This document shows positions 28,337-60,246 of a stretch of DNA of 61,607 bases, one piece after another (the first letter of the stretch is position 1; every line of letters starts with the position of its first letter). Below the pieces are notes generated by a model. It saw only the letters and a list, made by a program, of their open reading frames with translations, was not told the origin of the DNA and searched no databases. The translations under genes and the position numbers were made by a program. This DNA is from a virus (Duplodnaviria > Caudoviricetes): positions 1 to 61,607 of the IMG/VR virus record IMGVR_UViG_3300010359_000002; one strand, given 5' to 3'.

Positions 28337-28368
28337 TCCCCAGCTGATCCACAGCGTCATCCCCAGCG

Positions 28369-28448
28369 CAACGGCCGTTCACCGGCACATCACGGAGACG
28401 TCTCCGAACCGCCCTTGACCAGCGGGAACAGCCGGTGAACGGCCGTTG
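28369..28448. repeat. 18-bp perfect inverted repeat whose arms each contain an AAC-GGCC-GTT box
   Basis: CAACGGCCGTTCACCGGC (28369-86) / GCCGGTGAACGGCCGTTG (28431-48), upstream of the replication operon. Confidence 0.7.
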
Positions 28449-28530
28449 GCGCCCTCGTCCTGGTGACACTGAGCTTGCCTCGCTCACTGAGCGTGCTCGT
28501 AGCGTCACTCCACAGGAAGGGGGTGACGAC

Positions 28531-29466: not shown

Positions 29467-29484
29467 TACCCGGAGGAAAGACCC

Positions 29485-30882: not shown

Positions 30883-30931
30883 ACCGCGGCCATAAGAAGA
30901 CCGGAACCTGAAACAGAACCTGGAGCAGACA

Positions 30932-31396: not shown

Positions 31397-31410
31397 GAGG
31401 GGGCAAGGCG

Positions 31411-35579: not shown

Positions 35580-35954
35580 ATGCCGCCGTCGGTCCGGCGC
35601 AAGGCCGGGATGACGGTCAAGCAACACGCACCGGTGGTGAGACAACTACGCCGGTTCCAGATCGAGGGCTACCACTGCCACCGGTGCGTGTTGTGCGGCC
35701 TGCGCTACAGCGACTGGTGCTCGGACCCGTGGATGAACGCGCGTTGCCGGGACTGCGCCGGCCAGCTCTACGGCCGCTCGATCGTCGACCACAACGCCGA
35801 CCCGCAGACCTGCTGCCGCACCAACGAGTGCAAGCCCTGCACCACCCAGCAGCGCCAGGTGTACCGCCTTGCCGGCGAGACCAACTGGTGGATCTGCCCG
35901 GTGTGCTGCCGAACGCATCCGTACCAACCTTCGTCAAGCCACAAGGAGCCGTGA
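35580..35954 (+). CDS. Cys-rich hypothetical protein
   Basis: More than ten Cys in ~124 aa. Confidence 0.55.
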   Translation: MPPSVRRKAGMTVKQHAPVVRQLRRFQIEGYHCHRCVLCGLRYSDWCSDPWMNARCRDCAGQLYGRSIVDHNADPQTCCRTNECKPCTTQQRQVYRLAGETNWWICPVCCRTHPYQPSSSHKEP

Positions 35955-36881: not shown

Positions 36882-37080
36882 AGCCCGTGCCTACATCTGC
36901 AACGTCGTTGAGCCAGCGCTTGTTGCTCGCGGTGTGAGTATGCAGATTACCGACCCCGATCAGCTTGCCCTATGCCACGCCATGCTTGACCGGACGCGGT
37001 TCAAGAATGACGCGAGCCGGGTTGAAGCGCGGCCCCGACTGCAGCGGAAGAATGGTGCAGTCGACCAGGACGCGGGTTAG
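36868..37080 (+). CDS. Possible small protein overlapping the integrase 3' end
   Basis: 70-aa ORF with a ~110-bp convergent overlap. Confidence 0.3.
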   Translation: MTKDEARAYICNVVEPALVARGVSMQITDPDQLALCHAMLDRTRFKNDASRVEARPRLQRKNGAVDQDAG

Positions 37081-38523: not shown

Positions 38524-38691
38524 GGGCCCGAAGCTAGCACGCACCTGAGTCCAATGTCGGCTGCACGACTGAAGAGATAATGCCGCTCTACGCTGGGTGA
38601 CGGGCAAGTCGCTGACCTGCGACGATGCCCGATCATGACACGCCGAGAGCCTTGACGTGCCAACGCCGCACTCATCAAGCAAGGTTCGGTC

Positions 38692-38886
38692 ATGAGCGAT
38701 GGACAGATCGTGACCGTGGATGGTCGGTACGGCTTCCGCTGGACCGGCCGGGAGCCGTTGGCCGTCGGGGATCGCGTGGTCCTGCCCGCCAACCGTTGGA
38801 CCGCCTCGACGTGGATCGGCACTGTGACGGCCCTGGGGGCCGAATGGACGGGCCCGATGAAGGTAATTGTCGGCCGGGCGCCGTAG
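38692..38886 (+). CDS. Small beta-barrel-like hypothetical protein
   Basis: 'L.VGDRVVLP....GTV' SH3/KOW-like pattern. Confidence 0.55.
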   Translation: MSDGQIVTVDGRYGFRWTGREPLAVGDRVVLPANRWTASTWIGTVTALGAEWTGPMKVIVGRAP

Positions 38887-38897
38887 CATGGGTCATC

Positions 38898-42766: not shown

Positions 42767-43401
42767 TGCCGTTCGCAGCTGGGGGTGATGCACCGGTCGA
42801 CTACGACCGCGAGGAGGGCTTCAACATCTTCGTGCAGTGGGACCCCGACGCTGAGCTGTACGGCATGGTGCTGGAGACCAGCAATGACCGCTCGGCGAAG
42901 CTGAGCCAGGAGCAGGCCCTGGAGTGGGTCCGCACGATGCTGGCGGCCCTGGCGGCGGCCGAGCATGACCGGGCGGTGGCCATCCAGCAGGCCAGGCTGG
43001 GTACGTCGATGCAGGACATCGCTGCACTGCTGCACGAGCTGCGGGAGGCACGGGGGCCGCTGGAGATGGGCCTGCTGGGGATCCGGCTGGAGCCGATCAT
43101 CGCCACGCGGCCGCAACATCGGTTGGAGGCTGTCGTCACGATCTACCAGGACGGCAAGCCGTCCGGCCAGTGGGGGCGGGAGGAGATCCTGGACCACGCC
43201 AACGGCATCCTGATGTGCGGCCCTGCCACGAAGGAGGACAACGCCTACTACTCGTGGCTGACCAAGAGGGCGGATCTGGATCATGGCGTGGCCACGCATG
43301 TGATCGCGGACCTGATCGACATGCACGATCCGAAGCTGGTGTTCAGGCCAACCTCTGGCCCCAGCGCAGCAGCTGGACCGCCGTCAGGCCCGGAGTCGTG
43401 A
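42766..43401 (+). CDS. Hypothetical protein
   Basis: TGATG coupling; 211 aa. Confidence 0.6.
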   Translation: MPFAAGGDAPVDYDREEGFNIFVQWDPDAELYGMVLETSNDRSAKLSQEQALEWVRTMLAALAAAEHDRAVAIQQARLGTSMQDIAALLHELREARGPLEMGLLGIRLEPIIATRPQHRLEAVVTIYQDGKPSGQWGREEILDHANGILMCGPATKEDNAYYSWLTKRADLDHGVATHVIADLIDMHDPKLVFRPTSGPSAAAGPPSGPES

Positions 43402-43675
43402 TACACACCTGAAGCGCCTCCCGGAACAGGGCGGCCCGAACACCGTGGGCGTGGATGAGGTGGCAGTCATGGCCCGGCTGCCAGCCGATCACCACGAGGT
43501 TGTCCTCGGTGTTCGGGCCGCCCTGCGAGCGGAACGTGACGTGGTGCAGGCTAACGACCTCGACCCACCGGCCGCACACGCGGCAGCAGTGGTTGTCGCG
43601 TTCGATGACGGCTCGGCGAACGCTCGTTGGCACCGCGTCCCCGATGCTCACGGCGAGACGCTCTCCGCTTCGCAC
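43343..43675 (-). CDS. HNH endonuclease
   Basis: VIERD..CRVCG...HH..RSQGG....NL.....CH...H. Confidence 0.8.
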   Translation of the reverse strand: MRSGERLAVSIGDAVPTSVRRAVIERDNHCCRVCGRWVEVVSLHHVTFRSQGGPNTEDNLVVIGWQPGHDCHLIHAHGVRAALFREALQVCITTPGLTAVQLLRWGQRLA

Positions 43676-43676
43676 A

Positions 43677-44009
43677 TCATTCCTTCAGGAGCCAGTCGTA
43701 CAGGTCGGGCATCGGCACGTGCTGGCCAGCGAGGCTGTGAGAGCAGTCGCTGAGGAACTCGAACACCCCGGCCCGCAGGAACGAGTGGCAGCGCAGCGGA
43801 CCTGCAGTGGTGAGGATGCTGGGGTTCAGCGTCGCAGCGGCGAGGCTGCCGTCCCAGTCCCAGCGCGCACGGATGCCCGTCTCGCCTTGCACCGGAAGCA
43901 TGTGCACCCCAGTGTGACCGTCCGCGACACAACCAGGGCAGACGAACAGCAGCGCCTTGTAGGTGTGCTCGCCGTCCCGCACCGTCCGCAGGAGCGCCTT
44001 CGGCTTCAC
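43677..44009 (-). CDS. DUF6527-like protein
   Basis: CPGC...H, W.WDG...TL.PSI, CHSF...G...FL.DC.H motifs. Confidence 0.65.
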   Translation of the reverse strand: MKPKALLRTVRDGEHTYKALLFVCPGCVADGHTGVHMLPVQGETGIRARWDWDGSLAAATLNPSILTTAGPLRCHSFLRAGVFEFLSDCSHSLAGQHVPMPDLYDWLLKE

Positions 44010-44218
44010 GCGTCACCCAGGTCAGGCTTGTGCTCATCTCGGCCGGCCCAGCGCAGCTCCACGAGCATCAGGCTGATGAACACCGCAGCCGCGGTGACGA
44101 GCAGCCAGGCGGTGACGTCCCAGCGCGCCACGTAGAACGGAACGCTAGCGAAGCCCATGATCAGGGCGCACCCGAACCAGTTGCGAGCGGCGCGGTGGTG
44201 GCGCTCGCTGGGGGTCAC
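44006..44218 (-). CDS. Small 2-TM membrane protein
   Basis: GTG 44218; two hydrophobic helices. Confidence 0.55.
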   Translation of the reverse strand: MTPSERHHRAARNWFGCALIMGFASVPFYVARWDVTAWLLVTAAAVFISLMLVELRWAGRDEHKPDLGDA

Positions 44219-44511
44219 CCGGCCTGCTCCAGGTACGCCAGCCAGGCACCCAGCTCGCCGGCCTGCTCCTTCTGGTCGTCGTTCTGGTCTTCGACCTTGC
44301 CCAGGGATAGGAGCATCCCCTCCACCCAGTCCTTCAGGTCGGCGTCGATGGTCCCGTCGGAGATGAACCCGGCGAGGTTGGTCTCGTCTACGTCGTCGCC
44401 TTCCATGTCGTCCAGCCAGAGCTGGGCGATGGCCTGCGCCTCGGCCTCGACGGGCACGGTCCCGTCGGTGCGCCAACGCTCGATGGCGGCGGCGGTGTCG
44501 ATCTCGGCCAC
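44215..44511 (-). CDS. Acidic hypothetical protein
   Basis: 98 aa, D/E-rich. Confidence 0.6.
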   Translation of the reverse strand: MAEIDTAAAIERWRTDGTVPVEAEAQAIAQLWLDDMEGDDVDETNLAGFISDGTIDADLKDWVEGMLLSLGKVEDQNDDQKEQAGELGAWLAYLEQAG

Positions 44512-44550
44512 GGTATGTTCCCCTTCGTTACGGTGTGCAGTGGCACCAGG

Positions 44551-45021
44551 CTAGGTGGTCAGTTCCTCGCGGTAGGGCACCACGCCGTGCATGTGGACCT
44601 CCAGCCGGCCCCACCACTCCATCGTCATTGCCCGCCGGCCCAGGAACCGCGGCCGCTGCTCAATCGGGCGCGTGGACTCGGTCTCCATCAGCCGGGCGTA
44701 GATCTCCGTCCAGCGCCGGCGCTTCACCAGCGGCCCGCAGGTCTCGCACGCACCCCAGTGGCCATCCGACTCGTAGCCGAACACTGGGTCAACGAAGCTG
44801 TCGGCGAGGATCAGCCACGGAGTAGGGCCGTCCCGGTCGCAGAAGTCGCAGCGCGAGGCGTTTGGCAGGGTGCCGCGTGGGACTGGTACCGGGATGTGGT
44901 CGTCGGCTTCCCAGGGCCGCAGGTGCCCGTAGCTCTCCTCGTAGGGAGGCTCTTGCTGGATGAACGCCTCCAGGGGGTAGCCGCACACTGCGCAGATCAT
45001 CTTGTTGCCGCCGCCGCTCAC
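44551..45021 (-). CDS. Zn-binding hypothetical protein
   Basis: CAVC, CDFC and W.ACETC motifs. Confidence 0.6.
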   Translation of the reverse strand: MSGGGNKMICAVCGYPLEAFIQQEPPYEESYGHLRPWEADDHIPVPVPRGTLPNASRCDFCDRDGPTPWLILADSFVDPVFGYESDGHWGACETCGPLVKRRRWTEIYARLMETESTRPIEQRPRFLGRRAMTMEWWGRLEVHMHGVVPYREELTT

Positions 45022-46004
45022 GATTCCATGCCCTTCCGTAGCTGCTCCACTTCGTCTAGAGCCACCTCAGCGGCGGTCCCGACCTCATCGAGCGCGGAAT
45101 CCAGCCAGTCGGAGTAGCGCGCGGCCAGCTGTAGCACGGTGTCGAACCGGCCCTTGATCGTTTCGTAGGCGATGCCGGAGACCCGGTCACGCTTCATCCG
45201 CAACGCCGCGGAGTCCCGCACCACCCGCTCCAGCTCGGTGACGGCCTCCAGCTCCACGGCCTGGATCAGCATGTCCCGGGCCTCCGGCAGGGCTACCAGC
45301 GGCAGCCGGTGCAGCTGGCAGCGCATCCGTACAGCCAGCTCGTGCAGCGCGGCCAGCTCCTCGGCGTGGGAGATGTGCACGAAGTAGGTGGACGGGTGGA
45401 GCATGACGGCCTCGAACTGGCCCAGGAGGTCACGGAACATGCCCCGGGCCTTGTTGCCGCCCAGATACTGCAGGGACCGCTTGTAGGCGTCGTCGATGCG
45501 GCGCAGCACCGCCTGGACCTGCGGGTGCTCCCCGGGCATCAAGGTGGAGGAGTTCATCGTGGTCCGCAGCCGCTCCGAGCCCGGGGTGATCCGCCCCTCC
45601 CGGACCGAGCCCCGGTAGAAGCGCAGCTCAGCCACCGTGTCGTGGCGCAGCTGCCGCTTGCCGGCGCGGACCTCCCGCACCAGCAGTCGGGTCTGCCCGT
45701 CCGGGTCCGGAGCCAGGGAGCGCACCAGGATCAGCCCCTGCTGCCCGCCGCCCAGGTCGTAGCTGTGTCGGTCCACCGACTTGGTCGCCACCCGGAATGC
45801 GTTCAGCGCGGTGCCCGGGTGCGGCAGGTGACGCGCGTCCAGTCCCAGCTCTAGCAGCCACCCGGCGATGGCCTGCCGGTCGTAGTCGGCCTCCTTCACG
45901 GTGAAGAACACCAGGTGTCCCAGCAGCATCGCTGCCGGGAGGGTGTCGTGCGTCTCGACGTAGGCGGACAGCTCCCGTTCCAGCTGTCCGCTGCCCTGAC
46001 TCAC
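45018..46004 (-). CDS. DUF6744/DUF3150-like protein
   Basis: 'LGHLVFFTV', 'AFR.AT', 'YFV' and a helical C-terminus; adjacent to the vWA gene. Confidence 0.55.
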   Translation of the reverse strand: MSQGSGQLERELSAYVETHDTLPAAMLLGHLVFFTVKEADYDRQAIAGWLLELGLDARHLPHPGTALNAFRVATKSVDRHSYDLGGGQQGLILVRSLAPDPDGQTRLLVREVRAGKRQLRHDTVAELRFYRGSVREGRITPGSERLRTTMNSSTLMPGEHPQVQAVLRRIDDAYKRSLQYLGGNKARGMFRDLLGQFEAVMLHPSTYFVHISHAEELAALHELAVRMRCQLHRLPLVALPEARDMLIQAVELEAVTELERVVRDSAALRMKRDRVSGIAYETIKGRFDTVLQLAARYSDWLDSALDEVGTAAEVALDEVEQLRKGMES

Positions 46005-47569
46005 AGAGCTGCCGGGAACAGCCCGGCCGCGGTGTCCACCTCGTCGCCCGGCAGTACACCGGTGATCGGGCGGACCGTGTCGCAGATCTGCTGCATGGTC
46101 GAGCCCTCGCCGGTCTCGTAGCCGATCAGCACCCCGTGCACCCGAACCCCCAGTCGGCGCCGGCGCTCCTGGAAGCTGGCTACCCACTCGTCGTCGAACC
46201 AGCTGTAGCCGTCGTCGGTGATGAAGACGATGTCGGCCTGGCCGAATCGGCGCTGATCGAAGCGGGTCGCGCACTCCTGTAGCGCCATGTTCAACGGCGG
46301 CTCGAAGCAGGTGCCGCCGCAGAAGAAGTGCTCCACCATCTCCACCGTCGCCTCGAAGGACGGGGTGCTCAGGTCGATGCAGTGCTGCTCGTAGCTGGAG
46401 GCGAAGCCGATGTAGTACATCGGCCGGTGCTGCAGCTGCGCCAACCGGGCCAGGGCCAGGGTGAGCGCCTTCGCCCACGCCTCCCGGGTGACCGAGCCGA
46501 TGTCAGGGATCTCCATCGACCCCGACTCGTCGCACACCACCACCAGCGGCCCCCGGCCGGTCCGCTCGGTGCCGCGGACCGCCCACACCGACAGGCGCTG
46601 CTCGACGTAGCGCAGCAGGAAGTCGGTCTCCAGCTCCGGTGTCGCCAGGGACACCATCTCGTCGTTGGTGAGCCGGCCCAGGTCGTCACCCAGCTCCACG
46701 CCCACGATCTCCGACGGGACACCGGCCACCTTCTTGCGCAGCGCGGCCTCCGCGGCCGAGCGCATCGCCCCGACCAGCGAGGCGAACTTGGCGATCCGGT
46801 TGTGCTGCAGCCGCTTCATCAGCGCTTCGCGCTCGGCGAAGCTCTTGCGCTGCAGGGTGCCTGGGTCGAGCCCGAACTGGTGGGCCATCGCCGTCTGGGC
46901 CTGCAGCTGGGCTGCAGACGCGTCCGCGCTGGCCCTCAGCATCAGCATGACCTGGCCGGCCGCGATGTCGGCGGCCTCGGTGGCCTGCTCCTCCAGTACC
47001 ACGAGGGTGCCGAGCAGCTCCTCCAGCGCCAGCTCGATGTCCGCCAATTCCTGCAGCTGGTCAGGGTCGGCCTCGTCCGGGTCCAGGTTCTCGATCAGTT
47101 CCCGGGCCCTGGCGGCCAGTTCCAGGGCCTGATCGAGCCGGTCCTGCAGCTCCTGGGCCATCTGCTGGGCCAGCTCCATCGCCTCGAACGCGGCCTCCAG
47201 CTCCGAGCGCATCGACAGCAGCGCGAGCATGGTGGCGTACAGGTGGTTGGCGGTGTGGTTGCGCAGGTTCAGCAGCTCGTCGTACTCCGAGAACCGGTGC
47301 ACCATCTGCCGGTTCGCGATGTAGGCCGGCGCCATCTCCCCGGCCGGGCGCACCCGCGGGTCACCCTTGAGCAGCAGCAGGAACACGTCCTGGAGGAACT
47401 CCGGTGCCCGGTCGTACTTGGCGGTGAAGTCCAGGTACAGATCCTGCAGCGACGGCATCTCCTTGCGCGCCTCGGTCCAGGACTGGACGTCGAAGCGGTC
47501 GTGCGCTACGGCGTGCTTGTGCTGCCGGCTGGCCAGCCTGGCCCAGGTGTCCCAGGTGTCGCTCATCAT
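46001..47569 (-). CDS. vWA-domain protein (ViaA-like)
   Basis: MIDAS DESGSM, GGT.F and DIVFITD motifs; G.ELG.DL.RL. Confidence 0.85.
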   Translation of the reverse strand: MMSDTWDTWARLASRQHKHAVAHDRFDVQSWTEARKEMPSLQDLYLDFTAKYDRAPEFLQDVFLLLLKGDPRVRPAGEMAPAYIANRQMVHRFSEYDELLNLRNHTANHLYATMLALLSMRSELEAAFEAMELAQQMAQELQDRLDQALELAARARELIENLDPDEADPDQLQELADIELALEELLGTLVVLEEQATEAADIAAGQVMLMLRASADASAAQLQAQTAMAHQFGLDPGTLQRKSFAEREALMKRLQHNRIAKFASLVGAMRSAAEAALRKKVAGVPSEIVGVELGDDLGRLTNDEMVSLATPELETDFLLRYVEQRLSVWAVRGTERTGRGPLVVVCDESGSMEIPDIGSVTREAWAKALTLALARLAQLQHRPMYYIGFASSYEQHCIDLSTPSFEATVEMVEHFFCGGTCFEPPLNMALQECATRFDQRRFGQADIVFITDDGYSWFDDEWVASFQERRRRLGVRVHGVLIGYETGEGSTMQQICDTVRPITGVLPGDEVDTAAGLFPAAL

Positions 47570-47907
47570 GCCTCCCTGGTGTGGTGGTTGAACCACTCCG
47601 GCCGACCGCAGTGGTGGCACTCCGGTTCCCGGCCCCCGACCGCCACCCCGAACCGGAACGGGTGCAGGTGCGCCAGGGCCTGGTAGATCGCGCAGTCCCT
47701 GCTGTGCCGGGCTTTCCAGCCGCACGCCTCGCACGGCGCGGCTGCCGCCTTCAGCTGGCCCACCGGCACCATGCCGTAGATCTCGGAGCCGTCGAACTGC
47801 ACGAAGGCGTTCATGGTGCCCGGCGAGTCCAGCAGGGTGCCGCAGTAGCTGGTGTCGAGCAGGGCACCGCGATACCCGTTGACCCGCGAGCCCTTGGCCA
47901 GCCTCAT
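47566..47907 (-). CDS. Hypothetical protein
   Basis: MRLAKGSRV...; C/H motifs. Confidence 0.5.
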   Translation of the reverse strand: MRLAKGSRVNGYRGALLDTSYCGTLLDSPGTMNAFVQFDGSEIYGMVPVGQLKAAAAPCEACGWKARHSRDCAIYQALAHLHPFRFGVAVGGREPECHHCGRPEWFNHHTREA

Positions 47908-48308
47908 TGCTTGACCTCGCGTGGCCGGATGTTCTCGGCCGAGAACCGCTTCACGTGACGTTTTCCGGTCCTGTTGCGGGCGTAGTCGACCTCGACCAGG
48001 GTGCGCCCCAGGTCGGTGACGCGGCCGGGCCGCCAGGCGCCGTAGCTGTGCACCTGCACGAACATCCCCACGGCGTAGGTGAACGTGTGCGACTTCAGCT
48101 CGGCGCCGTCCCACACGGACGATTCAGCCCGGGTGCCGACCAGGAACTCGTAGGTGCCGCGCAGGTAACGCTCGCCCTTCTCCAGCGTCCAGGTGGTCAG
48201 GGTCAGCCCCAGGTACAGCCGGTGTGGCCGCGCAGCGGTGTGCTCGGCCAGCTCCGTGGGAGACCCGCTGAAGTGGCAGCCCGCCCGCGGGCAGAACTTC
48301 TGCGTCAC
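47904..48308 (-). CDS. Hypothetical protein
   Basis: N-terminal C2H2-like and C-terminal SH3-like patterns. Confidence 0.55.
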   Translation of the reverse strand: MTQKFCPRAGCHFSGSPTELAEHTAARPHRLYLGLTLTTWTLEKGERYLRGTYEFLVGTRAESSVWDGAELKSHTFTYAVGMFVQVHSYGAWRPGRVTDLGRTLVEVDYARNRTGKRHVKRFSAENIRPREVKQ

Positions 48309-49336
48309 GACGCCAGCCCCCGCTCCTGGATCAGCTTGCCGGCGCGGCGCACGCCGTCCACCGTGAGCCGCCGGCCGCCGGACTCGATGGTGATGTAGCC
48401 GCGCTGGCTGAGCAGGTTCTCGGTGTGGTTCAGCGGGCCGGGCTCGCTGAGCATGCCGGCGATGGTGGCCAGGCTGGCCTTGCCCTCGCAGGAGACCAGC
48501 ACCAGCAGGTAGTCCTGGGCGACCCGGTTGAGCCCGTCGTGGCTGACGCCGGCCCAGGTCAGCGCGGTGTTGATGTCGAAGCCGGGCTCACCGTCGTAGT
48601 AGGTGTCCCGGTAGGCCACCAGCACCGAGGTCATGTCCCGGGGCGCGTTGTTCGCGGCCGTGGCCAGCGCGGCCAGGGTCTCAGCGCTGGGCATCGGGTA
48701 CAGCTCGGTGCCGAACTCCAGCTTCAGCGCGATCCCCTTGATGATCCGCAGCGCCTCCTCGTCGGTGTACGCCTCCAGCACCGGGCGGATCCGGAATCGA
48801 CCCAGGATCGTGGCCGGCAGCCGCTGGGCTTCGGTGGTGGCCCCGATCACGGTGACGTCCGGCATCGGCTCGTCGCCGGCCGCGGTGAGCAGCCGGCCGT
48901 CCTGCAGCAGGTGCAGCAGCCACTCCGCCTTGCCCTTGCCGCCCTGCACCAGCTGGTGGATCTCGTCGAGGAACAGCACATCCCCGTCCTGCATCCCGCG
49001 CAGCGCCGAGCGGGCCTCGTCCACGCTGACCGGGCCGGACAGCTCCATGAAGCCGACGCCGAGCAGGTAGGCGATCAGCCGGGCCAGGCTCGACTTGCCG
49101 ACCCCGCCCATCCCCGAGGCCAGCAGGATGTGATCCGGCCGGCTGCCGCGGGCCTTCGCCGAGGCGATGACGGCCTTGAGGTGCCGGATGGCGTTGTCCT
49201 GGCCGACGAACTGCTCCCAGCTGCGCGGGTACGGGCCATTGCCGAAGATGTCCTCGCCCCGCTTGGGGGAGGGCCCCTCGACAGCGACGGCCAGGCTGGC
49301 CGCGCGCAGCCGCTCTTGGATTCTCGGGTGGATCAT
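48305..49336 (-). CDS. ruvB: RuvB-like Holliday junction branch migration ATPase
   Basis: P.SW.QFVGQ, DHILL..G.GKS.LA, GDVLFLDEIH, TVIGATT, RF, Y...E, and C-terminal E..L...G.I...GR motifs. Confidence 0.8.
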   Translation of the reverse strand: MIHPRIQERLRAASLAVAVEGPSPKRGEDIFGNGPYPRSWEQFVGQDNAIRHLKAVIASAKARGSRPDHILLASGMGGVGKSSLARLIAYLLGVGFMELSGPVSVDEARSALRGMQDGDVLFLDEIHQLVQGGKGKAEWLLHLLQDGRLLTAAGDEPMPDVTVIGATTEAQRLPATILGRFRIRPVLEAYTDEEALRIIKGIALKLEFGTELYPMPSAETLAALATAANNAPRDMTSVLVAYRDTYYDGEPGFDINTALTWAGVSHDGLNRVAQDYLLVLVSCEGKASLATIAGMLSEPGPLNHTENLLSQRGYITIESGGRRLTVDGVRRAGKLIQERGLAS

Positions 49337-50517
49337 GCGGTTCCCTCCTCCAGGGATGACGGGACACCCAGGGCGGTGTCCAGCTGGTGACGTAGCCGGT
49401 CGACGGCGGTGGTCAGGTCGTGCACGTGCTCTGCGGCGGCCGGGCCGTGGGTGGTGGTCAGGCCGGCGATCTCGCGGCGGATCTTGTCCATCTTGGCGTC
49501 GCACTCGGCGTCGAAGCCGGCCAGCTTGGCCAGCGACTCCCCGGCCGCGACCCGCAGAGACAGCTCGGAGCCGATCTCGCGGATCGTGTCCATCACCGCG
49601 AGCGCGTCCTTGGCGGCCGGGTCGGCCACCTCCGCCCGGATCCGCCGGATGGGCTCCAGCTGCTCCGGCCGGTCCCACAGCGTGAACTCCAGCGCCCGCA
49701 GGTCGATCGGCTCCACCTCGCTGGTGCCGTTCAGGAACGCCCGCGCCTGCAGCACGCGCATGCTCTGGCGCCAGCGCCGGTCGGAGGCGATCACGCCGGC
49801 CTCGCGCAGCTTGGAGCGGATGTGGATGACGTGCTCAACCACCACGTCGGGGATCTTGATCTCCGGCACCACCTCCTCGATCACGTACCGCAGCTCATCG
49901 AAGGGGACCGTGGTGTAGGTGGCCGGCCGGTCGCCGGCCGTCAGCAGCCGGCCGAACTGCACCGGGGAGTCGATGTAGTCGACCACCACCCGCACCAGCA
50001 GCCGGTCCCACAGCGCGGCCGCATCGTCGGACTCCCCGGCCGGCAGCTCGTTGCTGGCGGTGAACGCCGTGAACAGCGGGATCGGGTGCACCGAGCCCAC
50101 GCCGTCCAGCACCTCGTGCCGCACCCGTTCGTTCAGTGCGGCGAGCAGGTCGTGGCCCAGCGTGGCGGACATCTTCCCGATCTCGTCCAGGAAGCAGAAC
50201 ACGGCGGTGAGCAGGTAGCCGTCGATCTTGCGCTCGTAGTCGCCGGTCTCGCGCAGCCTCGGCAGGTTGATCGGGCCCAGCACCGCGGCGTCAGAACGAG
50301 TGCGGGACAGCCCCATCGCGAAGTACGGGGCCCCGGTGATCCGCTTGACCAGCTCGTTGATGACGTCGGTCTTGCCGGCGCCGACCGGGCCGTGCGCGTA
50401 CAGGTGCTGTTTGGCCAGCACCGCGTACAGCGCCGCGTCGATGAGCTGCTGACGCTCGAAGAACACGCCGTTCAGCTCGGTGCGGATGGCGCGCAGCCTG
50501 GCCGCTACGTCGATCAC
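49333..50517 (-). CDS. MoxR/RavA-family AAA+ ATPase
   Basis: GPVGAGKT, FLDEIGK, LNER, ASNELP, ALWDRL and SDRRW motifs. Confidence 0.85.
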   Translation of the reverse strand: MIDVAARLRAIRTELNGVFFERQQLIDAALYAVLAKQHLYAHGPVGAGKTDVINELVKRITGAPYFAMGLSRTRSDAAVLGPINLPRLRETGDYERKIDGYLLTAVFCFLDEIGKMSATLGHDLLAALNERVRHEVLDGVGSVHPIPLFTAFTASNELPAGESDDAAALWDRLLVRVVVDYIDSPVQFGRLLTAGDRPATYTTVPFDELRYVIEEVVPEIKIPDVVVEHVIHIRSKLREAGVIASDRRWRQSMRVLQARAFLNGTSEVEPIDLRALEFTLWDRPEQLEPIRRIRAEVADPAAKDALAVMDTIREIGSELSLRVAAGESLAKLAGFDAECDAKMDKIRREIAGLTTTHGPAAAEHVHDLTTAVDRLRHQLDTALGVPSSLEEGTA

Positions 50518-50527
50518 GTGATCTCCT

Positions 50528-51457
50528 TCACACGAGCGGGATCTCCGAGAGTTGGGCGATCCCGCAGTTGTCGAAGTTCAGGTCTGTGCGCAGGCCCAGG
50601 AACACCGGCTCACGCAGCCCATCCTTGGTGCGACCCATGACAGAGACGTCCACGATGGCGTAGCCACCGTCCTCGAGAATGTCCGCCAGCTGCCGCATCT
50701 CCATGTCGTTGAAGCCGGTGCCGACCTCGCCGACCAGCACCGGCTCCGAGCCCCTCAGCAGCGCCACCGTGATGTTGCGGAACGGCCGGCCGTTGCCGGT
50801 CAGCGCCCACGAGCTGGTGGCGTGCATCCGCACAGCGATGACGGTCAGGGTGTAGCGGTGCTTGAACTTCAGCCACTGCCGGGTCCGTGACCCCGGCATG
50901 TAGTAGCCGCGCGGGTCCTTGGCGATGACGCCCTCGTCGCCGGCGCGGCGGGTGCGCTCGAACAGCTCCATCCCGCCGGACTCGACCAGCTGGACTGCCG
51001 GCACGTTGAGCATCTCGACCGTGGCGGCCAGCCGGGTGCGCCGGTCCACCTGCCTCATGCGCGGCAGGTCCAGGTCGTCGTCCAGGGCGTCGAACGCCTG
51101 CACCCAGGCCGGGCGGGCCATCGCGGCGGCCATGATGGCCCGCGGCCGGGTGGTGTTGAGCCGGCCGGTCAGTGCCGACAGCGGCAACGCAGGGTTGATG
51201 CACTCCAGTTCGCCATCGAGCAGGAACTGGCGCGGCCGGTCCGCGCTGAGGATGGACTGGACCACCTCGGGGAACGCGGCCGCGACGTCGCGGCCGGTCC
51301 GGGTCCACAGCTGCACGACGTCGCCCCGGCGCTTGACGATGACGCGCACGCCGTCGATCTTCGGCTCGAAGCTCCAACCGTCGCTGGCCAGCGCCTCCAG
51401 GGTCTGCAAGGGCCCGGGGACGCTGGCCAGCATCGGCTTGGGAACGATGCTCTTCAC
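50528..51457 (-). CDS. ATP-dependent DNA ligase (LigD/LigC-like ligase + OB domain)
   Basis: PMLA, EPKIDGVR (KxDG), LDGEL, AFD, EGVIAK, WLKFK, VGTGF and LREPVF.GLR motifs. Confidence 0.9.
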   Translation of the reverse strand: MKSIVPKPMLASVPGPLQTLEALASDGWSFEPKIDGVRVIVKRRGDVVQLWTRTGRDVAAAFPEVVQSILSADRPRQFLLDGELECINPALPLSALTGRLNTTRPRAIMAAAMARPAWVQAFDALDDDLDLPRMRQVDRRTRLAATVEMLNVPAVQLVESGGMELFERTRRAGDEGVIAKDPRGYYMPGSRTRQWLKFKHRYTLTVIAVRMHATSSWALTGNGRPFRNITVALLRGSEPVLVGEVGTGFNDMEMRQLADILEDGGYAIVDVSVMGRTKDGLREPVFLGLRTDLNFDNCGIAQLSEIPLV

Positions 51458-51726
51458 AGCACGGCGTTCATCTGCTGGAGGGTGACGCCCTGCACGGCGC
51501 TGAACGCCTGCGCCAGCAGCACCTCCAGCATCTCCGGGGTGAACGCCGGGTTGTGGTCCACCACCAGAAGCACCCGGCTGCGGATCAGGGCCACGTTGTG
51601 CAGCGGGTTGGACCGGGCCAGCCCGCAGTGCGGGTACATGCACGTGGGCAGGCCGTCCCCGGGCGGCTCGAAGGTGTGCACCGGCAGGTTCGGCCGGGGC
51701 GGCGGGTGCGGGTCGACGTCCAGCAT
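51454..51726 (-). CDS. Hypothetical protein
   Basis: Coupled between Ku and ligase; H.F...C..C...H. Confidence 0.55.
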   Translation of the reverse strand: MLDVDPHPPPRPNLPVHTFEPPGDGLPTCMYPHCGLARSNPLHNVALIRSRVLLVVDHNPAFTPEMLEVLLAQAFSAVQGVTLQQMNAVL

Positions 51727-52526
51727 CAGGCCGCCTTGCGCCGGCGGGTCGGCTTGACGGCCTCGGCCATCTGCTGCAGCGCCGCCAGAGCGTGGTCCAC
51801 GCTGGGCTGCGCCGGCGTCCCGTTGGCCACCACGTCGGCGATGGCCGCCTCGGAGGTGTCGGCGTAGGCCGCCGGGTCGTACCGGGTGATGAGCGTCTTG
51901 CGGCCCTGCTTGAGCACCTGCTCAGCCAGCCCCAGCAGCTGGGTGTCCGGCTCGGCCGGCACAAGCGGCGCGGCCTTGACCCGGTCGGCCGGCAACCGCT
52001 CCTGCATCACCAGCACGTCGCCGCGGGTGGTCACCCGGAACATGCCGACCTTGCTGCGCGGTGCCCAGCGGGCGCAGAAGGCGACCTCCGGGTGGTTGCC
52101 CAGCAGGGCCGCCATCACCGCGTAGCCGCGCTCCTGGCCGGGCGCCGGCAGCAGGTAGTAGAGCTTGTCACCGGTGATCGTCTCGACCTCGACCTCCGGG
52201 GACGGGTGCCCGGCCAGCTCGATGCGCTTCTTGAACGGCTCCGCGTTGGCCGCGATGGCCGCGTTGGTCTCCTGCGACAGCAGGATGAGCCCTCCGGCGA
52301 CTTCCCGCGCGCTGTGGGTGGAGCCGCGGGGGACCTCGCCGCAGGCCGGGCACTGGATCGTGGTGTGGATCTGCTGGGGGTCGTGGGCCTCGGTGGCGTC
52401 ACCGGTGCAGACGGTGACGTTCTTGGGCGCCGGCTCCAGCGCGCCGGCCACGTTCACGGTGACGTTGAACAGGCCGAACGCGAGGCTGACGTTGCTCGAC
52501 AACGTCCGCAAGGTGGCAGCGGACAC
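51726..52526 (-). CDS. ku: Ku-like DNA end-binding protein
   Basis: RBS AAGGAG; 'LAFGLFNV.V', 'CPACGEV', 'YYLLP....Y', 'YDP..Y.D' and 'D.ALAAL' match the prokaryotic Ku pattern. Confidence 0.8.
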   Translation of the reverse strand: MSAATLRTLSSNVSLAFGLFNVTVNVAGALEPAPKNVTVCTGDATEAHDPQQIHTTIQCPACGEVPRGSTHSAREVAGGLILLSQETNAAIAANAEPFKKRIELAGHPSPEVEVETITGDKLYYLLPAPGQERGYAVMAALLGNHPEVAFCARWAPRSKVGMFRVTTRGDVLVMQERLPADRVKAAPLVPAEPDTQLLGLAEQVLKQGRKTLITRYDPAAYADTSEAAIADVVANGTPAQPSVDHALAALQQMAEAVKPTRRRKAA

Positions 52527-52586
52527 GGTGACTCCTTGGGTTGGACGTGCATGGGAGAGGTGACCATCGTGCGGTCGGTGGTGCGA

Positions 52587-52600
52587 TGAACGCGCGTTCG
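52587..52600. promoter_or_regulatory. SOS-box-like palindrome TGAAC-GCGC-GTTCG
   Basis: Perfect GAAC-N4-GTTC about 60 bp upstream of ku. Confidence 0.6.
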
Positions 52601-52630
52601 TTGGCCGAAGTCCACCCATCCGGGCGAGTC

Positions 52631-52807
52631 CTATTCGTCGGCCATGCGCGCCTCGAACGCATTGAGCGCTTCACGGGTATAGCTGATGTTGTTGCCCTCC
52701 CGGACGTAGTCGATCCGGCCGGCCTTGCGAGCACGCTGGAGCGTCCGCTTGGAGATCAACAGCTGATCGGCAGCTTCCTGCTCGGTGAACTCGTCCTTCA
52801 CGGGCAC
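52631..52807 (-). CDS. Excisionase/MerR-type HTH DNA-binding protein (58 aa; not in the ORF track)
   Basis: RBS GGGAGG; 'FTEQEAADQLLISKRTLQRARKAGRI' HTH_17-type pattern. Confidence 0.75.
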   Translation of the reverse strand: MPVKDEFTEQEAADQLLISKRTLQRARKAGRIDYVREGNNISYTREALNAFEARMADE

Positions 52808-52863
52808 GCTGGCGCCTCCCCTCGGGGGTCGCCACGCAGAGTCAGCGCGTGGTCACTGTGCGC

Positions 52864-52893
52864 AGCTTTGCCCTGGTGACGCGCGTTCGTCAA
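52864..52893 (-). promoter_or_regulatory. Putative promoter (-35 TTGACG) overlapped by a degenerate AAC-N4-GTT box
   Basis: Minus strand TTGACG-aacgcgcgtcaccaggg-CAAAGCT; box at 52876-52889. Confidence 0.4.
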
Positions 52894-53114
52894 CCTGAGA
52901 GCGGGTGATATGCGGGGAGCGCGCCCAGTCCGCGTCTCCCTCAAGCCTGTCCCCTGGTGCTGTCCCGCGATGCTCAGGTGCCAACAAGGGCGGCGAGCTG
53001 GGTCCAGAGGCCGTGCAGGGCGGCTTCCTTCGGCATCGGGCATGCGTGGGCCACTGAGCCGTCTTGCACCCACCAGGCTAGCCGGTAGGGGTTGTTGCCG
53101 CTGATGGCGCGCGC

Positions 53115-53198
53115 TCAGCGGCGTCTGTGGTGGCCTGCCAGAGAGAGAGCGACCCCAGCGGCAATACCGATCAAGAGCCACACTGCCAACGTCCACAT
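53115..53198 (-). CDS. Small 1-TM peptide
   Basis: MWTLAVWLLIGIAAGVALSLAGHHRRR. Confidence 0.4.
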   Translation of the reverse strand: MWTLAVWLLIGIAAGVALSLAGHHRRR

Positions 53199-53202
53199 AA
53201 TC

Positions 53203-53688
53203 TCAGCCCTCCGGCTCGTGCGGTGCGGAGTCGATGCCGTCGTGGCAGGTCCGGTCGTGGGCGTCCAACCAGTGGCCATCCACCCGGTACAGCGGCCAGC
53301 GGCAGCGCCGGCAGAGGACCAGCTCGCCGGTGGGCCGGCCGTTGGACCGGCAGCGGACGTGGTCACGAGCGGCCACGAAGATCACGCCGCGCAGGCTGCC
53401 CCGGTCGGGGCCCTCGGGGATCCCCAGCTCGGCCGCCAGCAGCTCGGCCAGCACCCAGGCCCGGTGAGACAGCTTGCCGACTCGCGGCAGTGGCGGGGTG
53501 CAGCGGGTGATCCAAGCACCGAACGTGCGGGAGTTGCGCCGGAGCCAGTCGTAGCCGGGTCCCCCGCCCTGCTCGGCCACGGCCACCTCCCGCACCAGGT
53601 CCGGGAACCGCGGGTGGGCTTCGATCTGCTCCAGCTGGGCGGCGTGGGTGGCGTTGATCTGCGCGTAGTCCGGGTGTCGGATTCTCAC
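53203..53688 (-). CDS. Hypothetical protein
   Basis: GTG 53688 with RBS GGAGG; C-terminal CRRC..C..H. Confidence 0.55.
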   Translation of the reverse strand: MRIRHPDYAQINATHAAQLEQIEAHPRFPDLVREVAVAEQGGGPGYDWLRRNSRTFGAWITRCTPPLPRVGKLSHRAWVLAELLAAELGIPEGPDRGSLRGVIFVAARDHVRCRSNGRPTGELVLCRRCRWPLYRVDGHWLDAHDRTCHDGIDSAPHEPEG

Positions 53689-53933
53689 CTCGCCTCCAGG
53701 GCTCGTAGTACACGGATGGCACCGCGGATCGTGGCCACGTCCTCGGCGTACAGCTCTTCCAGGTCGACGGCGCCAAGTAGCTGGGCCAGGTCCCCCAGCG
53801 ACAGGTAGACGAACACGTCCCGGCTGTTGGTGTCGCCCGGCCCGGCGACGCTCTTGGCGCGGTACTGCACGATCTCCTTGAACGGGTTGGCCGTCTCCAC
53901 GCCCGTGACGACAATGGGCAGCCGCTTCGGCAT
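53685..53933 (-). CDS. Hypothetical protein
   Basis: Coupled ORF. Confidence 0.55.
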   Translation of the reverse strand: MPKRLPIVVTGVETANPFKEIVQYRAKSVAGPGDTNSRDVFVYLSLGDLAQLLGAVDLEELYAEDVATIRGAIRVLRALEAR

Positions 53934-54239
53934 CTAGGCCAGCTCCTTGTAGAGGGTGCGGACGACCTCCACGGCTCGGGTCTCGACCTCGTCGGCGTCG
54001 TTCTCCGTGAGGCTCTCCTGCCACCCGATCAGCCAGTCGCGCCCCTTGTTGGTGAGCAGCTCTTTCGCCTCGCGCTCGATGTCCGCCCGAGTCGGTGTCG
54101 GGCGCTCCTCCACCTCGCCCTCGCCACCGTCGAGCAACATCGCGGCGGCCGCGACCAACACGCAGAAGTCGATGACGTGGCGGATCAGAACGATGGCACG
54201 CTGCTCGCCATCGGTGTAGGTATTGAACTTGAGCGGCAT
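53934..54239 (-). CDS. Hypothetical protein
   Basis: ATG 54239, RBS AGGAGG. Confidence 0.55.
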   Translation of the reverse strand: MPLKFNTYTDGEQRAIVLIRHVIDFCVLVAAAAMLLDGGEGEVEERPTPTRADIEREAKELLTNKGRDWLIGWQESLTENDADEVETRAVEVVRTLYKELA

Positions 54240-54514
54240 CAGTCCTCCTTCTTGAGCAGAAACTCGCGGAGCTTCAGGAACGCCTGCCACACCTCCGGAT
54301 CCCGCTGCATGTCGAGAGCCGGGATGGCGCCGAGCAGGGCGGCCAGGTTCCGGTGCGAGAGCGTGACGTAGGCGGTGCGCTCGGCCACAGCGGCAATGCC
54401 GGCCACGGTCAGAGCCTCGAAGCGAACCGACGGGTAGTCCGGCCCGCGGGCGAACGCCATCGGCTCGCCACTCTCCTGCGGCTTGATCCCGTCGACCCAG
54501 ATGGGTTGGCGCAT
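54239..54514 (-). CDS. Hypothetical protein
   Basis: RBS GGAGG; coupled. Confidence 0.55.
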   Translation of the reverse strand: MRQPIWVDGIKPQESGEPMAFARGPDYPSVRFEALTVAGIAAVAERTAYVTLSHRNLAALLGAIPALDMQRDPEVWQAFLKLREFLLKKED

Positions 54515-57186: not shown

Positions 57187-58248
57187 TCAGGCGTTGGTGA
57201 GGATGCGGCCCAGCAGCTCCATCGCCGCGTCGTCCGCCTTGCCCTGCTCACCCTTGACGGCCGACATCATGTTGCGCTCGGCCCGGGTGCCCCCACGCAC
57301 GATGCCTTCGTGGTGGTCGTAGGTGTTGACGGCCTGCAGCACCCCGAAGCTGGTGCCCTTCCAGGGACTGACCCGCTGGTCGTGGTTCCACAGCTTCTTG
57401 AGCGTGTCCTGCTTGTTGATGGCCATCGTCAGCGCGCGGCCCTCCTTCTTCTTGCCGTCCTCGGTGACCGGCACGTACGCCTCCAGGAAGGCGAGCCACT
57501 GCTTGTCGGTGACCGTGGTGGCGCACAGCTCGGCCACCTGCGCGGTGAAGTCGTCCGCGGCCTGGTGGATGATGCCGAGCGCCTGCCGGGCGCTGGCCAG
57601 CTTGAAGCCGGAGTTCTTGGTGTGCTTGGCCTTGAACTGCTGCCCACGCTCACCCCGTGCGGCCTCCAGCGTGTTGTCGCAGACCACCACCGTGATCGTG
57701 CGCTTGAAGGTGGTGGCGATCGAGCCGTCGAAGCTGGTGCAGCCCAGCAGGTTGGGCCGGAAGGAGACGCCCTCGGGTGTGGTGATGGTGTCGGGCACCT
57801 CCACCTGCACCCAGGCGACGGCGCCCTGTCGCAGCAGACCGGCCGACCCGATGCTCAGGTCGTCGTCCAGCAGGTTCGCGACGGTGTCCAGCAGCCACTG
57901 CTTGTACTGGTGCGGCTGGTAGCCGTCCTTGAACATCCCCATGACGTGGTTGTTGTCGTCACGGGCGATGGCCTGCCGGTCCAACTGCACGGCCCACTTC
58001 ATCGGGGTGCCGTCCTCGGCCAGGTGGGTCATGTCCTCGAAGGTGGCCGGGACCTCGACCGCGACGCGACGGCTGGTGGCGGCCCAGTCGAAGAGCCGGC
58101 GGGTGACGTGCTCCACCGGGATGGCGCCCGGGTAGTGGTTGGACTCGGCGCCCTGCTCCTGGGCCTTGTAGTGCCAGGCGTGACCGCGCTTGTCGGTGAA
58201 GCCGATCAGGGTGTTGGTGTTCAGGGTGCTGATGGTCTCGAAGGTCAT
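57187..58248 (-). CDS. DUF932 (phage/plasmid-like TIGR03299) protein
   Basis: AWH, Y.PHQ, SAGLL..G, SFDGS, VVCDNTL, KHT and W.GT..G..QAV..Y.HH motifs. Confidence 0.8.
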   Translation of the reverse strand: MTFETISTLNTNTLIGFTDKRGHAWHYKAQEQGAESNHYPGAIPVEHVTRRLFDWAATSRRVAVEVPATFEDMTHLAEDGTPMKWAVQLDRQAIARDDNNHVMGMFKDGYQPHQYKQWLLDTVANLLDDDLSIGSAGLLRQGAVAWVQVEVPDTITTPEGVSFRPNLLGCTSFDGSIATTFKRTITVVVCDNTLEAARGERGQQFKAKHTKNSGFKLASARQALGIIHQAADDFTAQVAELCATTVTDKQWLAFLEAYVPVTEDGKKKEGRALTMAINKQDTLKKLWNHDQRVSPWKGTSFGVLQAVNTYDHHEGIVRGGTRAERNMMSAVKGEQGKADDAAMELLGRILTNA

Positions 58249-58295
58249 CGGTGCTCCAGTGCTCGGGCGATCCGGGACGTGGTGGGAGAGGTGGT

Positions 58296-58333
58296 GCGGT
58301 GCTACGGGCGGTGCGCGGTGCTACGGGCGGTGC
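58296..58333. repeat. Perfect 19-bp tandem duplication GCGGTGCTACGGGCGGTGC x2
   Basis: Read directly from the sequence. Confidence 0.85.
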
Positions 58334-59972: not shown

Positions 59973-60246
59973 CTAGGAAGGGCAATCGGGCCGGCAGGCA
60001 CTCACCCGTTCGGCCCAGCGGGCCCGGAGCGTGCCGACCGGTCCGCGCTTTCCGTGCGGTCCGTCGTGCGCTTGCACTTTAGAAGGGCAATCGAGCACGC
60101 GGGCACTCACCCGCTTGGCTCAACCGGCGTTCAACGCGCGTTCCGCGCGGTCCGTCCGGCTGGGCGCCCGGCCCGATGTTCCGGCCGGCCGTGCTTGCCG
60201 CTCTGCTAGGGAGGGCAATCGAGCCGGCCGGCACTCACCCGTTCGG
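59973..60246 (-). promoter_or_regulatory. Three tandem copies (C, D, E) of the bipartite motif
   Basis: + strand AGGGCAATC..CACTCACCCG at 59980, 60084 and 60212; GCAAT-to-CACTC spacing is 12 nt in each. Confidence 0.65.

Follow-up and report, generated by a model that had tools for sequence, protein, structure and literature searches.

Organization of the Ku operon

We analysed the virus record IMGVR_UViG_3300010359_000002 of IMG/VR over its entire length of 61,607 bp (hereafter the window), with the focus on a minus-strand operon that opens with a gene for a homologue of Ku. Six genes of this operon are the subject of this work. They encode Ku, an ATP-dependent DNA ligase, a RavA-like MoxR AAA+ ATPase, a RuvB-like AAA+ ATPase, a ViaA-like protein with a domain of the von Willebrand factor A (vWA) type, and a DUF6744 protein. 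Phage Ku, bacterial non-homologous end joining (NHEJ) and MoxR-vWA pairs are all known kinds; what is new is that they are united here in a conserved six-gene phage module.

The gene model was built from third-position GC, start-codon context and gene junctions, and the resulting features are collected in Table 1. From Ku to the gene for a 156-aa protein, ten genes succeed one another on the minus strand, and eight of their nine junctions are 1- or 4-nt overlaps (TGATG, ATGA and GTGA). The sole non-overlapping junction lies between ligase and MoxR and is a gap of 10 nt containing GAAGGAG. Ku starts with GTG and has AAGGAG in front. The 90-aa open reading frame (ORF) that follows Ku shares bases with the stop of the Ku gene and with the start of the ligase gene. 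It has neither a family match nor a homologue in related loci, where the spacing between Ku and ligase varies. No promoter- or terminator-like sites were found in positions 43000-54500 by a simple scan tuned to sigma-70 promoters and intrinsic terminators, which gives weak evidence. Since eight of nine junctions overlap and no such site appeared in the scan, the tightly packed, mostly overlapping leftward run described in an earlier sequence-only reading of this DNA is confirmed. The domain calls made there for the six proteins were borne out by Pfam, with PHROGs in agreement for Ku, the ligase, the ATPase and the vWA protein. The 90-aa gene between Ku and ligase was overlooked in that reading, and the run continues to position 44551.

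Table 1. Features of the Ku operon and of other parts of the window (values in exponent form are E-values)
Feature	Position	Strand	Evidence or remark
PD-(D/E)XK nuclease, Sak4-like annealing ATPase, primase/DnaB-like helicase	28348-33372	+	ORF family scans
Serine integrase	36970-38889	-	ORF family scans
156-aa Cys-rich ORF, end of overlapping run, coupled translationally to DUF6744	45021-44551	-	not kept in relatives
DUF6744 protein, 328 aa	46004-45018	-	PF20529; AlphaFold2 model
ViaA-like vWA/MIDAS protein, 522 aa	47569-46001	-	VWA_2, phrog_24053, PRK10997
113-aa ORF	47907-47566	-	without family match; not kept in relatives
134-aa ORF	48308-47904	-	weak Agenet/Tudor-like C-terminus; not kept in relatives
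RuvB-like AAA+ ATPase, 343 aa	49336-48305	-	RuvB_N, 3pfi, PRK00080
RavA-like MoxR AAA+ ATPase, 394 aa	50517-49333	-	bpMoxR, AAA_lid_8, PRK13531
ATP-dependent DNA ligase, 309 aa	51457-50528	-	PF01068, NCBIfam, solved structure
90-aa ORF between Ku and ligase	51726-51454	-	third-position GC 1.0
Ku, 266 aa	52526-51726	-	Pfam, PHROGs, NCBIfam, solved-structure profile
Palindrome CGAACGCGCGTTC, earlier read as SOS-like box	52588-52600	.	candidate operator of phage regulator
HTH_17 protein, 58 aa, excisionase/recombination-directionality-factor-like, directly upstream of Ku	52807-52631	-	PF12728 1.4e-7; phrog_7506 1.4e-5
DUF932 protein	57187-58320	-	phrog_1221 2.5e-94
AACGCGCGTT copies, 10 bp	2071-2080, 7440-7449, 27354-27363, 35736-35745, 52589-52598, 60133-60142	.	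palindrome

Ku and the DNA ligase

The first protein of the operon was recognized by the Pfam model Ku (27.5 bits against a cut-off of 25), by phrog_4873 (4.8e-11) and by TIGR02772 (Ku_bact; 1.2e-14, 54.4 bits, under the cut-off of 150). Taken alone, the window Ku aligned weakly to solved bacterial Ku (1.3e-4), and a profile of nine phage Ku sequences aligned over its full length to the solved bacterial Ku 8v53 (5.2e-20, positions 11-259). In the consensus of eight Ku relatives, a conserved C-terminal DLLAKL-type motif aligns with its counterpart in solved bacterial Ku; the window's own protein has a different C-terminus (..ALAALQQMAEAVKPTRRRKAA). In bacteria, this C-terminal region binds LigD (PMC8073936). 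The Cys/His positions of the phage Ku clade were considered as a novelty of the lineage and dropped, because the CxxC aligns to solved bacterial Ku too.

The ligase matches PF01068 (DNA_ligase_A_M, 2.5e-25) and phrog_114, and the lysine of the KxDG motif I is present (KIDG). Its match to the NHEJ ligase domain TIGR02779 (6e-35) reaches 120.9 bits, under the cut-off of 227.75, and the best solved match is the ligase domain of Mycobacterium tuberculosis LigD (1vs0, 3.2e-18). The protein consists of nucleotidyltransferase and oligonucleotide-binding (OB) domains only and aligns solely to ligase-domain positions. Pfam detected no LigD polymerase (archaeo-eukaryotic primase, AEP) or phosphoesterase domain in the ligase or in other operon proteins. 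The Ku homologue thus adjoins a ligase of the LigD-ligase-domain type, in accordance with the NHEJ-like pair that had been proposed from the sequence.

Bacterial two-component NHEJ (a Ku homodimer and LigD, as in Mycobacterium and Bacillus) likewise combines a Ku beta-barrel core with a LigD-type ligase; in the window, the gene for Ku, with a putative C-terminal arm, lies next to and upstream of that for the ligase. Unlike the bacterial system, the window ligase has 309 aa without polymerase or phosphoesterase, Ku and ligase both score under curated cut-offs, and the pair belongs to a virus and stands among four other conserved genes.

Among phages, Ku is also encoded by Mycobacterium phages of the Omega type (cluster J) and the Corndog type (cluster O), which share with the window a phage-encoded Ku in an actinobacterial phage. 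Corndog and Omega reportedly depend on LigD of the host. A search with canonical Ku in 50,697 phage records gave 88 matches, of which 87 are Mycobacterium phages. Searched against the same records, the window Ku (tblastn) and the operon region (megablast) had no match, so that none of the Ku mycobacteriophages was found by the window Ku. These phages differ further in that ligase, MoxR, vWA and RuvB are all unannotated within 6 kb of Ku in the two inspected records, Pound (cluster J) and Vagabond (cluster O). A 2025 survey (PMC11936186) has 11 Ku sequences from viruses; apart from one of a Streptomyces phage, they belong to Mycobacterium phages.

MoxR, vWA and RuvB-like proteins

The MoxR protein matches bpMoxR (6.3e-29), AAA_lid_8 (6.8e-18) and AAA_5 (2.6e-10) and possesses Walker A (GPVGAGKT) and Walker B (FLDE) motifs. 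It is nearest to RavA (PRK13531; 1.2e-38, 133.5 bits, under the cut-off of 681), with residues 4-290 aligned to positions 7-294 of the 498 of RavA, which is unmatched beyond position 294. The vWA protein comprises a helical N-terminal part and a C-terminal vWA domain (VWA_2, 1.9e-5; phrog_24053, 2.7e-47). Its nearest relative is ViaA (PRK10997; 2.7e-21, 76.3 bits against a cut-off of 500), aligned in ViaA residues 109-455. The MIDAS (metal ion-dependent adhesion site) is intact (D346-x-S348-x-S350, T419, D445), and across 32 sequences D346, S348, T419 and D445 are invariant and S350 is near-invariant.

An AAA+ ATPase of the MoxR type with a vWA partner is also found in the co-chaperone pairs RavA-ViaA of Escherichia coli, CbbQ-CbbO and NorQ-NorD. 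Compared with RavA-ViaA, the window pair is far under the cut-offs, resides on mobile elements, has DUF6744 as a third partner and is accompanied by genes for DNA enzymes.

In the RuvB-like protein, RuvB_N (1e-20) is followed by a weak RuvB_C, and PRK00080 is matched with 2.2e-33 and 115.6 bits, under the cut-off of 282. Residues 34-323 align in full length to residues 22-318 of solved RuvB 3pfi (6.6e-23), showing the three-domain RuvB architecture, and the RuvB signatures GxxGxGK, DEIH, ATT, RF and PR are invariant across nine sequences. Full-length similarity and signature motifs are therefore shared with the motor of RuvAB branch migration at Holliday junctions. Differences from RuvAB lie in the score below the equivalog cut-off, in the most constant neighbour, which is DUF6744 (22 of 25 gene sets, see below), and in the partners: no RuvA or RuvC family was found among the 56 + 32 window ORFs scanned, and RuvA of the host could serve.

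DUF6744 protein

The last of the six proteins matches PF20529 along model positions 18-310 of 314 (1.3e-14, 54.4 bits against a cut-off of 27). Its AlphaFold2 model, computed from a 40-row alignment, has a predicted local distance difference test score (pLDDT) of 93.7 and a predicted template modelling score (pTM) of 0.86. The model comprises a helix at the N-terminus, an alpha/beta region whose sheet is long and curved, an element of two helices plus a hairpin, and a C-terminal three-helix bundle; residues 1-238 folded alone gave a pLDDT of 92.9. Foldseek against PDB at E <= 0.001 found no match, neither with the complete model nor with residues 1-238 by themselves. In the VIA wide comparison, the C-terminus retrieved only generic three-helix bundles (Z about 10-11), and the best Z for residues 1-238 was 7.7 over 67 residues, to Cas2-type ferredoxin-like folds, a level in the range of noise. 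A DUF6744 profile searched against PDB sequences returned coiled-coil noise only.

The family is near-neutral in charge (median pI 6.6), with few conserved polar residues. The model matched a protein of haloarchaeal virus HVTV-1 that is uncharacterised (1.1e-15), and the nearest ESM Atlas clusters are DUF6744 clusters, mostly viral. No match was obtained by tblastn in the 50,697 phage records, and no mention of DUF6744 was found in the literature searched, which lay outside subscription journals and supplements.

Conservation of the six genes

Loci related to the operon were gathered by vWA, RuvB-like or Ku bait, and conditional gene frequencies are for this reason biased. Relatives of the vWA protein are few (37 at E <= 0.001 in a word-indexed search). 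A scan of viral contigs with the single protein gave no match, and alignments were needed instead. With an alignment of 32 relatives as bait, 127 loci were retrieved, 80 in genomes and 47 in viral contigs. MoxR is present in 107 of them and DUF6744 in 43, followed by the ligase (12), Ku (10) and the RuvB-like gene (9), all on the strand of the vWA gene; the iterated hidden Markov models (HMMs) used were built from the very loci scored. Nine of the viral loci have the complete set of six, with one sequence represented twice. The RuvB-like bait retrieved 49 viral loci and added five further six-gene contigs and several partial sets. A Ku bait of four aligned sequences, reaching close relatives only (the nine-sequence alignment was too unconserved for scanning), detected six loci, which are four of the known six-gene contigs and two partial sets, one of them a 6.4-kb fragment with Ku-ligase-MoxR and the other the 102,678-bp contig L197 with Ku, ligase, RuvB-like and DUF6744.

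In total, 13 distinct viral contigs besides the window carry the six genes on one strand within spans of 6354-12017 bp. Identity to the window proteins is 21-49%, and GC of the loci ranges from 0.47 to 0.70. The order Ku-ligase-MoxR-vWA-DUF6744-RuvB-like was observed in ten of the 13. The remaining three have one order each, namely Ku-RuvB-like-ligase-MoxR-vWA-DUF6744, an order with the RuvB-like gene first, and DUF6744-RuvB-like-Ku-ligase-MoxR-vWA. The order in the window is its own and adds a fifth to these four. The most compact arrangement is in a 134.6-kb contig, where the six contiguous genes occupy 6186 of 6354 bp. Co-occurrence of the six genes elsewhere, set beforehand as the test of the proposed operon, was thus found in 13 other viral contigs.

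To describe the surroundings, genes of 24 chosen module-bearing loci and of the window's 38-61.6 kb were clustered (25 sets). Families present in at least 12 sets are RuvB-like (25), DUF6744 (22), ligase (19), vWA (18), MoxR (18), Ku (17) and an HNH nuclease (12); other large clusters were judged by coordinates to be antisense shadow ORFs and set aside. When the window was compared with the 10-kb flanks of the vWA-baited loci, isolated single-locus matches were all that appeared beyond the six genes and the HNH nuclease. In the lineage of the 102,678-bp contig L197, DUF6744 stays beside the RuvB-like gene and not beside MoxR-vWA.

DUF6744 occurs in 5 of 401 sampled genomes of class Actinomycetes. 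Surroundings were inspected in three, and one of them, a genome of 3.8 Mb, has Ku-ligase-MoxR-vWA-DUF6744. This locus (L189, G063:C37:1-13000) shows the phage gene order at positions 1654-11776 of the minus strand, at the start of a contig, and no RuvB-like gene was detected in the 1.6 kb left beyond DUF6744.

The literature was also consulted for the combination as a whole. No description of the six genes together was found in titles and abstracts, within the scope given for DUF6744, in agreement with the initial impression that this is not a described system. Within the literature searched, bacterial Ku, von Willebrand, AAA+ and LigD are joined in one review only, and a paper on polyvalent proteins mentions neither MoxR, vWA, RuvB and DNA ligase nor end-joining.

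The MoxR-vWA-DUF6744 triad in mobile elements

The vWA-baited loci extend well beyond phages with Ku, and include archaeal genomes. On the mobilizable 184-kb plasmid pNF1 of Nocardia farcinica (L130), AAA-vWA-DUF6744 genes occupy positions 4814-11690 of the locus, just downstream of genes for a type IV coupling protein and DUF4913. In elements of Firmicutes, recurrent neighbours of MoxR-vWA are genes for a single-stranded DNA-binding protein (SSB; 29 loci, between both genes), the beta clamp (23) and a SNF2/ResIII helicase (21), and further DUF3268, JAB, a DUF6094 methyltransferase and ThiF. For instance, in elements of the Clostridia type (L057:8550-9023, L055:3118-4323, L049:1119-4163 and similar ones) SSB splits MoxR and vWA, and the beta clamp and SNF2/ResIII helicase precede them. 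A reverse transcriptase gene (RVT_1, 9.3e-20; L095:11779-12693) directly follows vWA in nine viral loci without DUF6744. The company of the mobile-element MoxR-vWA-DUF6744 branch is DNA metabolism. No paper in the literature searched links MoxR/vWA with conjugation, ThiF, JAB and SSB.

Viral MoxR-vWA pairs have been noted before, and PMC7911831 calls their function unclear. In Bacillus phage 0305phi8-36, whose MoxR is related to that of the window by a weak tblastn match, deletion of an 8.1-kb island with MoxR, a vWA gene and two tRNAs caused a growth defect (PMC3357382).

The MoxR-vWA ternary conflict systems (Kaur et al. 2020, PMC7159879) share with the window a bpMoxR-type MoxR, a vWA protein and a third conserved gene. 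It could accordingly be proposed that the genes are a defence or exclusion system carried by a prophage, which would sense an invader and mount a response to it. In Pfam, the ATPase indeed matches best to bpMoxR, named from ternary systems of MoxR, vWA and beta-propeller, and the sporadic, mobile distribution, with DUF6744 in few Actinomycetes genomes, would agree. Yet the third gene in the window is DUF6744 and not a beta-propeller, VMAP or FtsH. Pfam shows no effector, peptidase or beta-propeller domain in the vWA or DUF6744 proteins, and the DUF6744 model contains no propeller. PADLOC had no match for nine of the ten operon proteins, including the triad, and for the RuvB-like protein only a marginal one to IetA (17.7 bits). 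Moreover, the paper defining ternary systems mentions neither RuvB nor DNA ligase. We consider a defence function very unlikely.

Joining of DNA ends as a proposed common task

We give about an even chance to the interpretation that the six conserved genes form one heritable phage-borne kit for double-stranded DNA ends, which combines end joining with an attached AAA+ remodeller. What we observed are the genes themselves, the intactness of their catalytic motifs, their translational coupling and the conservation of their linkage; every activity and its timing are inferred, as is the coupling of the triad to end joining. Ku dimers would thread onto and bridge the ends of an injected or nuclease-cut phage genome. 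The Ku C-terminal arm would then recruit the phage's own ligase, and the ends would be sealed without LigD of the host. The RuvB-like hexamer could move branched or protein-covered duplex DNA, and MoxR-vWA-DUF6744 could carry out ATP-driven remodelling of the protein-DNA complex at the joined site. The end-joining part of this scheme builds on what is known of bacterial Ku and LigD (PMC8073936) and on the conserved order of Ku followed by ligase. Because the lineage encodes its own ligase, it could join ends in hosts without NHEJ and mend restriction or CRISPR cuts.

A related case is the PhiKMV ligase, likewise a phage-encoded ligase for nuclease-made double-strand breaks, which mends such breaks and rescues phages from Cas12a and EcoRI (bioRxiv 10.64898/2026.09.21.753257). 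It differs from the window in being a single ligase gene of a Pseudomonas podovirus, without Ku, AAA+ or vWA partners. For host NHEJ, mis-repair of phage cos sites has been described (PMC12848934).

Without true end joining, Ku could shield linear intermediates of replication or packaging against host exonucleases in the manner of Mu Gam and the ligase could be a replicative nick-sealer, so that the genes would serve end protection and replication. ATP ligases are common in phages, as the phrog_114 match illustrates, this phage has its own primase/helicase and recombination genes, and terminal repeats in two complete relatives could permit circularisation by recombination. On the other hand, the ligase is nearest to the LigD NHEJ ligase domain and not to the replicative type. 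Its gene comes after Ku in 12 of the 13 relatives with six genes, and in the other one the two are separated by the RuvB-like gene. It comes after Ku in the 6.4-kb fragment and in the bacterial genome as well, and the consensus of related Ku keeps the C-terminal motif of the region described as LigD-binding in bacteria (PMC8073936). This alternative is in our view improbable.

Several observations weigh against a single kit for DNA ends. Matches of Ku, ligase, RuvB, RavA and ViaA all fall under the curated NCBIfam cut-offs, and for that reason none of the Ku, ligase, RuvB-like, MoxR and vWA proteins is an equivalog. In the two lowest-GC contigs, Ku is invisible to Pfam and was detected by the clade HMM only (6e-12 and 6e-8 before rebuilding), and in one of them the vWA domain is invisible to Pfam as well; ligase, DUF6744 and RuvB, together with MoxR in the one having MoxR, are confirmed there by Pfam. 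The contig L197, and also L141, keeps Ku, ligase, RuvB-like and DUF6744 genes, and in the L197 lineage no MoxR-vWA lies in the stretch that reaches 10 kb upstream and about 18 kb downstream of Ku. The 13 contigs could represent one old phage lineage, in which case the linkage may partly reflect descent. The 15 related records comprise two complete ones assembled with direct terminal repeats, one provirus and otherwise records classed as linear, a classification that does not reveal physical ends; given the two complete relatives with terminal repeats, it is not established that circularisation requires end joining. A Clostridia genome (L050) was evaluated as an independent link between Ku-ligase and MoxR-vWA and rejected: its Ku (171 bits) and ligase are the canonical pair of the host, and three unrelated genes, for APH, PhzF and an esterase, stand between this pair and the element. 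Finally, most DUF6744-bearing vWA-baited loci carry the triad without Ku, ligase and RuvB-like partners within 10 kb, and so do pNF1 and a Streptomyces plasmid.

This last point also speaks for the explanation by mosaic juxtaposition, according to which Ku-ligase, the RuvB-like gene and the triad are two or three independent accessory modules in one early operon. In that case the triad would serve a purpose that has nothing to do with DNA ends, for instance to establish mobile DNA on entry or to counter a host defence. Its presence on plasmids beside conjugation genes, in archaeal genomes and in a haloarchaeal virus fits this explanation, as do the SSB, beta clamp, SNF2-type helicase, methyltransferase, JAB and ThiF neighbours of triad-type genes in Firmicutes and the shifting position of the RuvB-like gene within the module. 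Against it stands the order Ku-ligase-MoxR-vWA-DUF6744, which 12 of the 13 relatives and one bacterial genome have preserved with identities of 21-49%. Around the module no further gene family has been retained, and one contig has the six genes contiguous. We regard mosaic juxtaposition as possible, but rather unlikely. With respect to the suggestion, made from the sequence, that AAA/vWA proteins belong to a repair module, their linkage to Ku-ligase agrees with it and the frequent occurrence of the triad by itself qualifies it. Because the triad mostly occurs without Ku, ligase and RuvB-like genes, we infer its role in break repair from linkage only.

Returning to the kit for DNA ends, a more specific task of the triad can be formulated by analogy with VCP/p97. 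In eukaryotes, Ku rings become trapped on DNA after ligation and are then extracted by p97 (PMC8073936). The triad, made up of a RavA-like hexamer with the ViaA-like MIDAS protein and DUF6744 as adaptors, might in the same way pull trapped Ku rings off the sealed phage genome, completing a load-seal-unload cycle as a prokaryotic and viral counterpart of p97. The resemblance is in the working only: an AAA+ hexamer and adaptor are present in both, in the window encoded beside Ku. In contrast to VCP/p97, the ATPase subfamily and adaptors are non-homologous, there is no ubiquitin step, and the contact between triad and Ku is hypothetical. We hold this extension to be tentative and quite unlikely.

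Genome context and the palindrome upstream of Ku

The record is classed as linear, with an estimated completeness of 74% and a GC of about 0.66-0.73. In its left 35 kb, plus-strand genes encode a tape measure protein, tail fibres, an endolysin-like protein, the PD-(D/E)XK nuclease, the Sak4-like protein and the primase/DnaB-like helicase. A leftward gene arm runs from about 59.8 kb to 43.3 kb and contains the Ku operon; the genes for tail and lysis are on the other strand. In this record, complete to 74%, a DNA polymerase was not seen. We read the Ku operon as part of the early region of a temperate siphovirus-like phage of high-GC bacteria.

This position bears on the role of a virion-assembly chaperone, reported or proposed for other viral MoxR-vWA pairs, as in an archaeal two-tailed virus and in jumbo phages (PMC7824862, PMC7911831). 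The genes studied here are in the early DNA-metabolism arm and not with those for tail and lysis, and their conserved partners are DNA enzymes. As plasmids that carry the triad build no virion, such a role is unlikely for the triad branch, and for the window we judge it extremely improbable.

Between the stop of the helix-turn-helix (HTH) gene and the start of Ku, 62 nt upstream of the latter, lies the perfect 12-bp palindrome GAACGCGCGTTC (52588-52599), which had been read as a perfect SOS-like box. The palindrome is real; control by LexA is not indicated. The actinobacterial LexA consensus is TCGAAC-N4-GTTCGA. GAACGCGCGTTC differs from it at three positions and was missed by a search allowing up to two mismatches, which found a single other site, within the ligase gene. 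The core AACGCGCGTT is present in six copies in the window, compared with 0.06 expected, and as many as six were attained in none of 100 shuffles. By the gene model, five copies are intergenic, and the flanks of the copies are not conserved. GAAC-N4-GTTC was found within 500 bp upstream of Ku in none of nine related loci. In view of the three mismatches, the phage-wide repetition and the absence upstream of Ku in relatives, the LexA (SOS) box was dropped, and the AACGCGCGTT set probably represents operators of a phage regulator.

In addition, an imperfect palindrome of the AACGCGCGTT type (minus strand TTGACGAACGCGCGTCACC) was observed at 52875-52895, beside a TTGACG hexamer, in a gene-free stretch of about 290 bp upstream of the HTH gene. 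This site may be the promoter/operator of the Ku operon.

Implications

The constant presence of a RuvB-like motor, a RavA/ViaA-like remodeller and DUF6744 suggests accessory machinery for prokaryotic end joining. We know of no prokaryotic answer to how Ku rings leave ligated DNA, and the module would make their departure from DNA in prokaryotes a testable question. If unloading of Ku by the triad were true, MoxR-vWA-DUF6744 would more broadly act as a machine of mobile elements for stripping incoming DNA of ring- or clamp-like proteins. DUF6744 and the mobile-element MoxR-vWA branch hereby gain their first concrete functional context.

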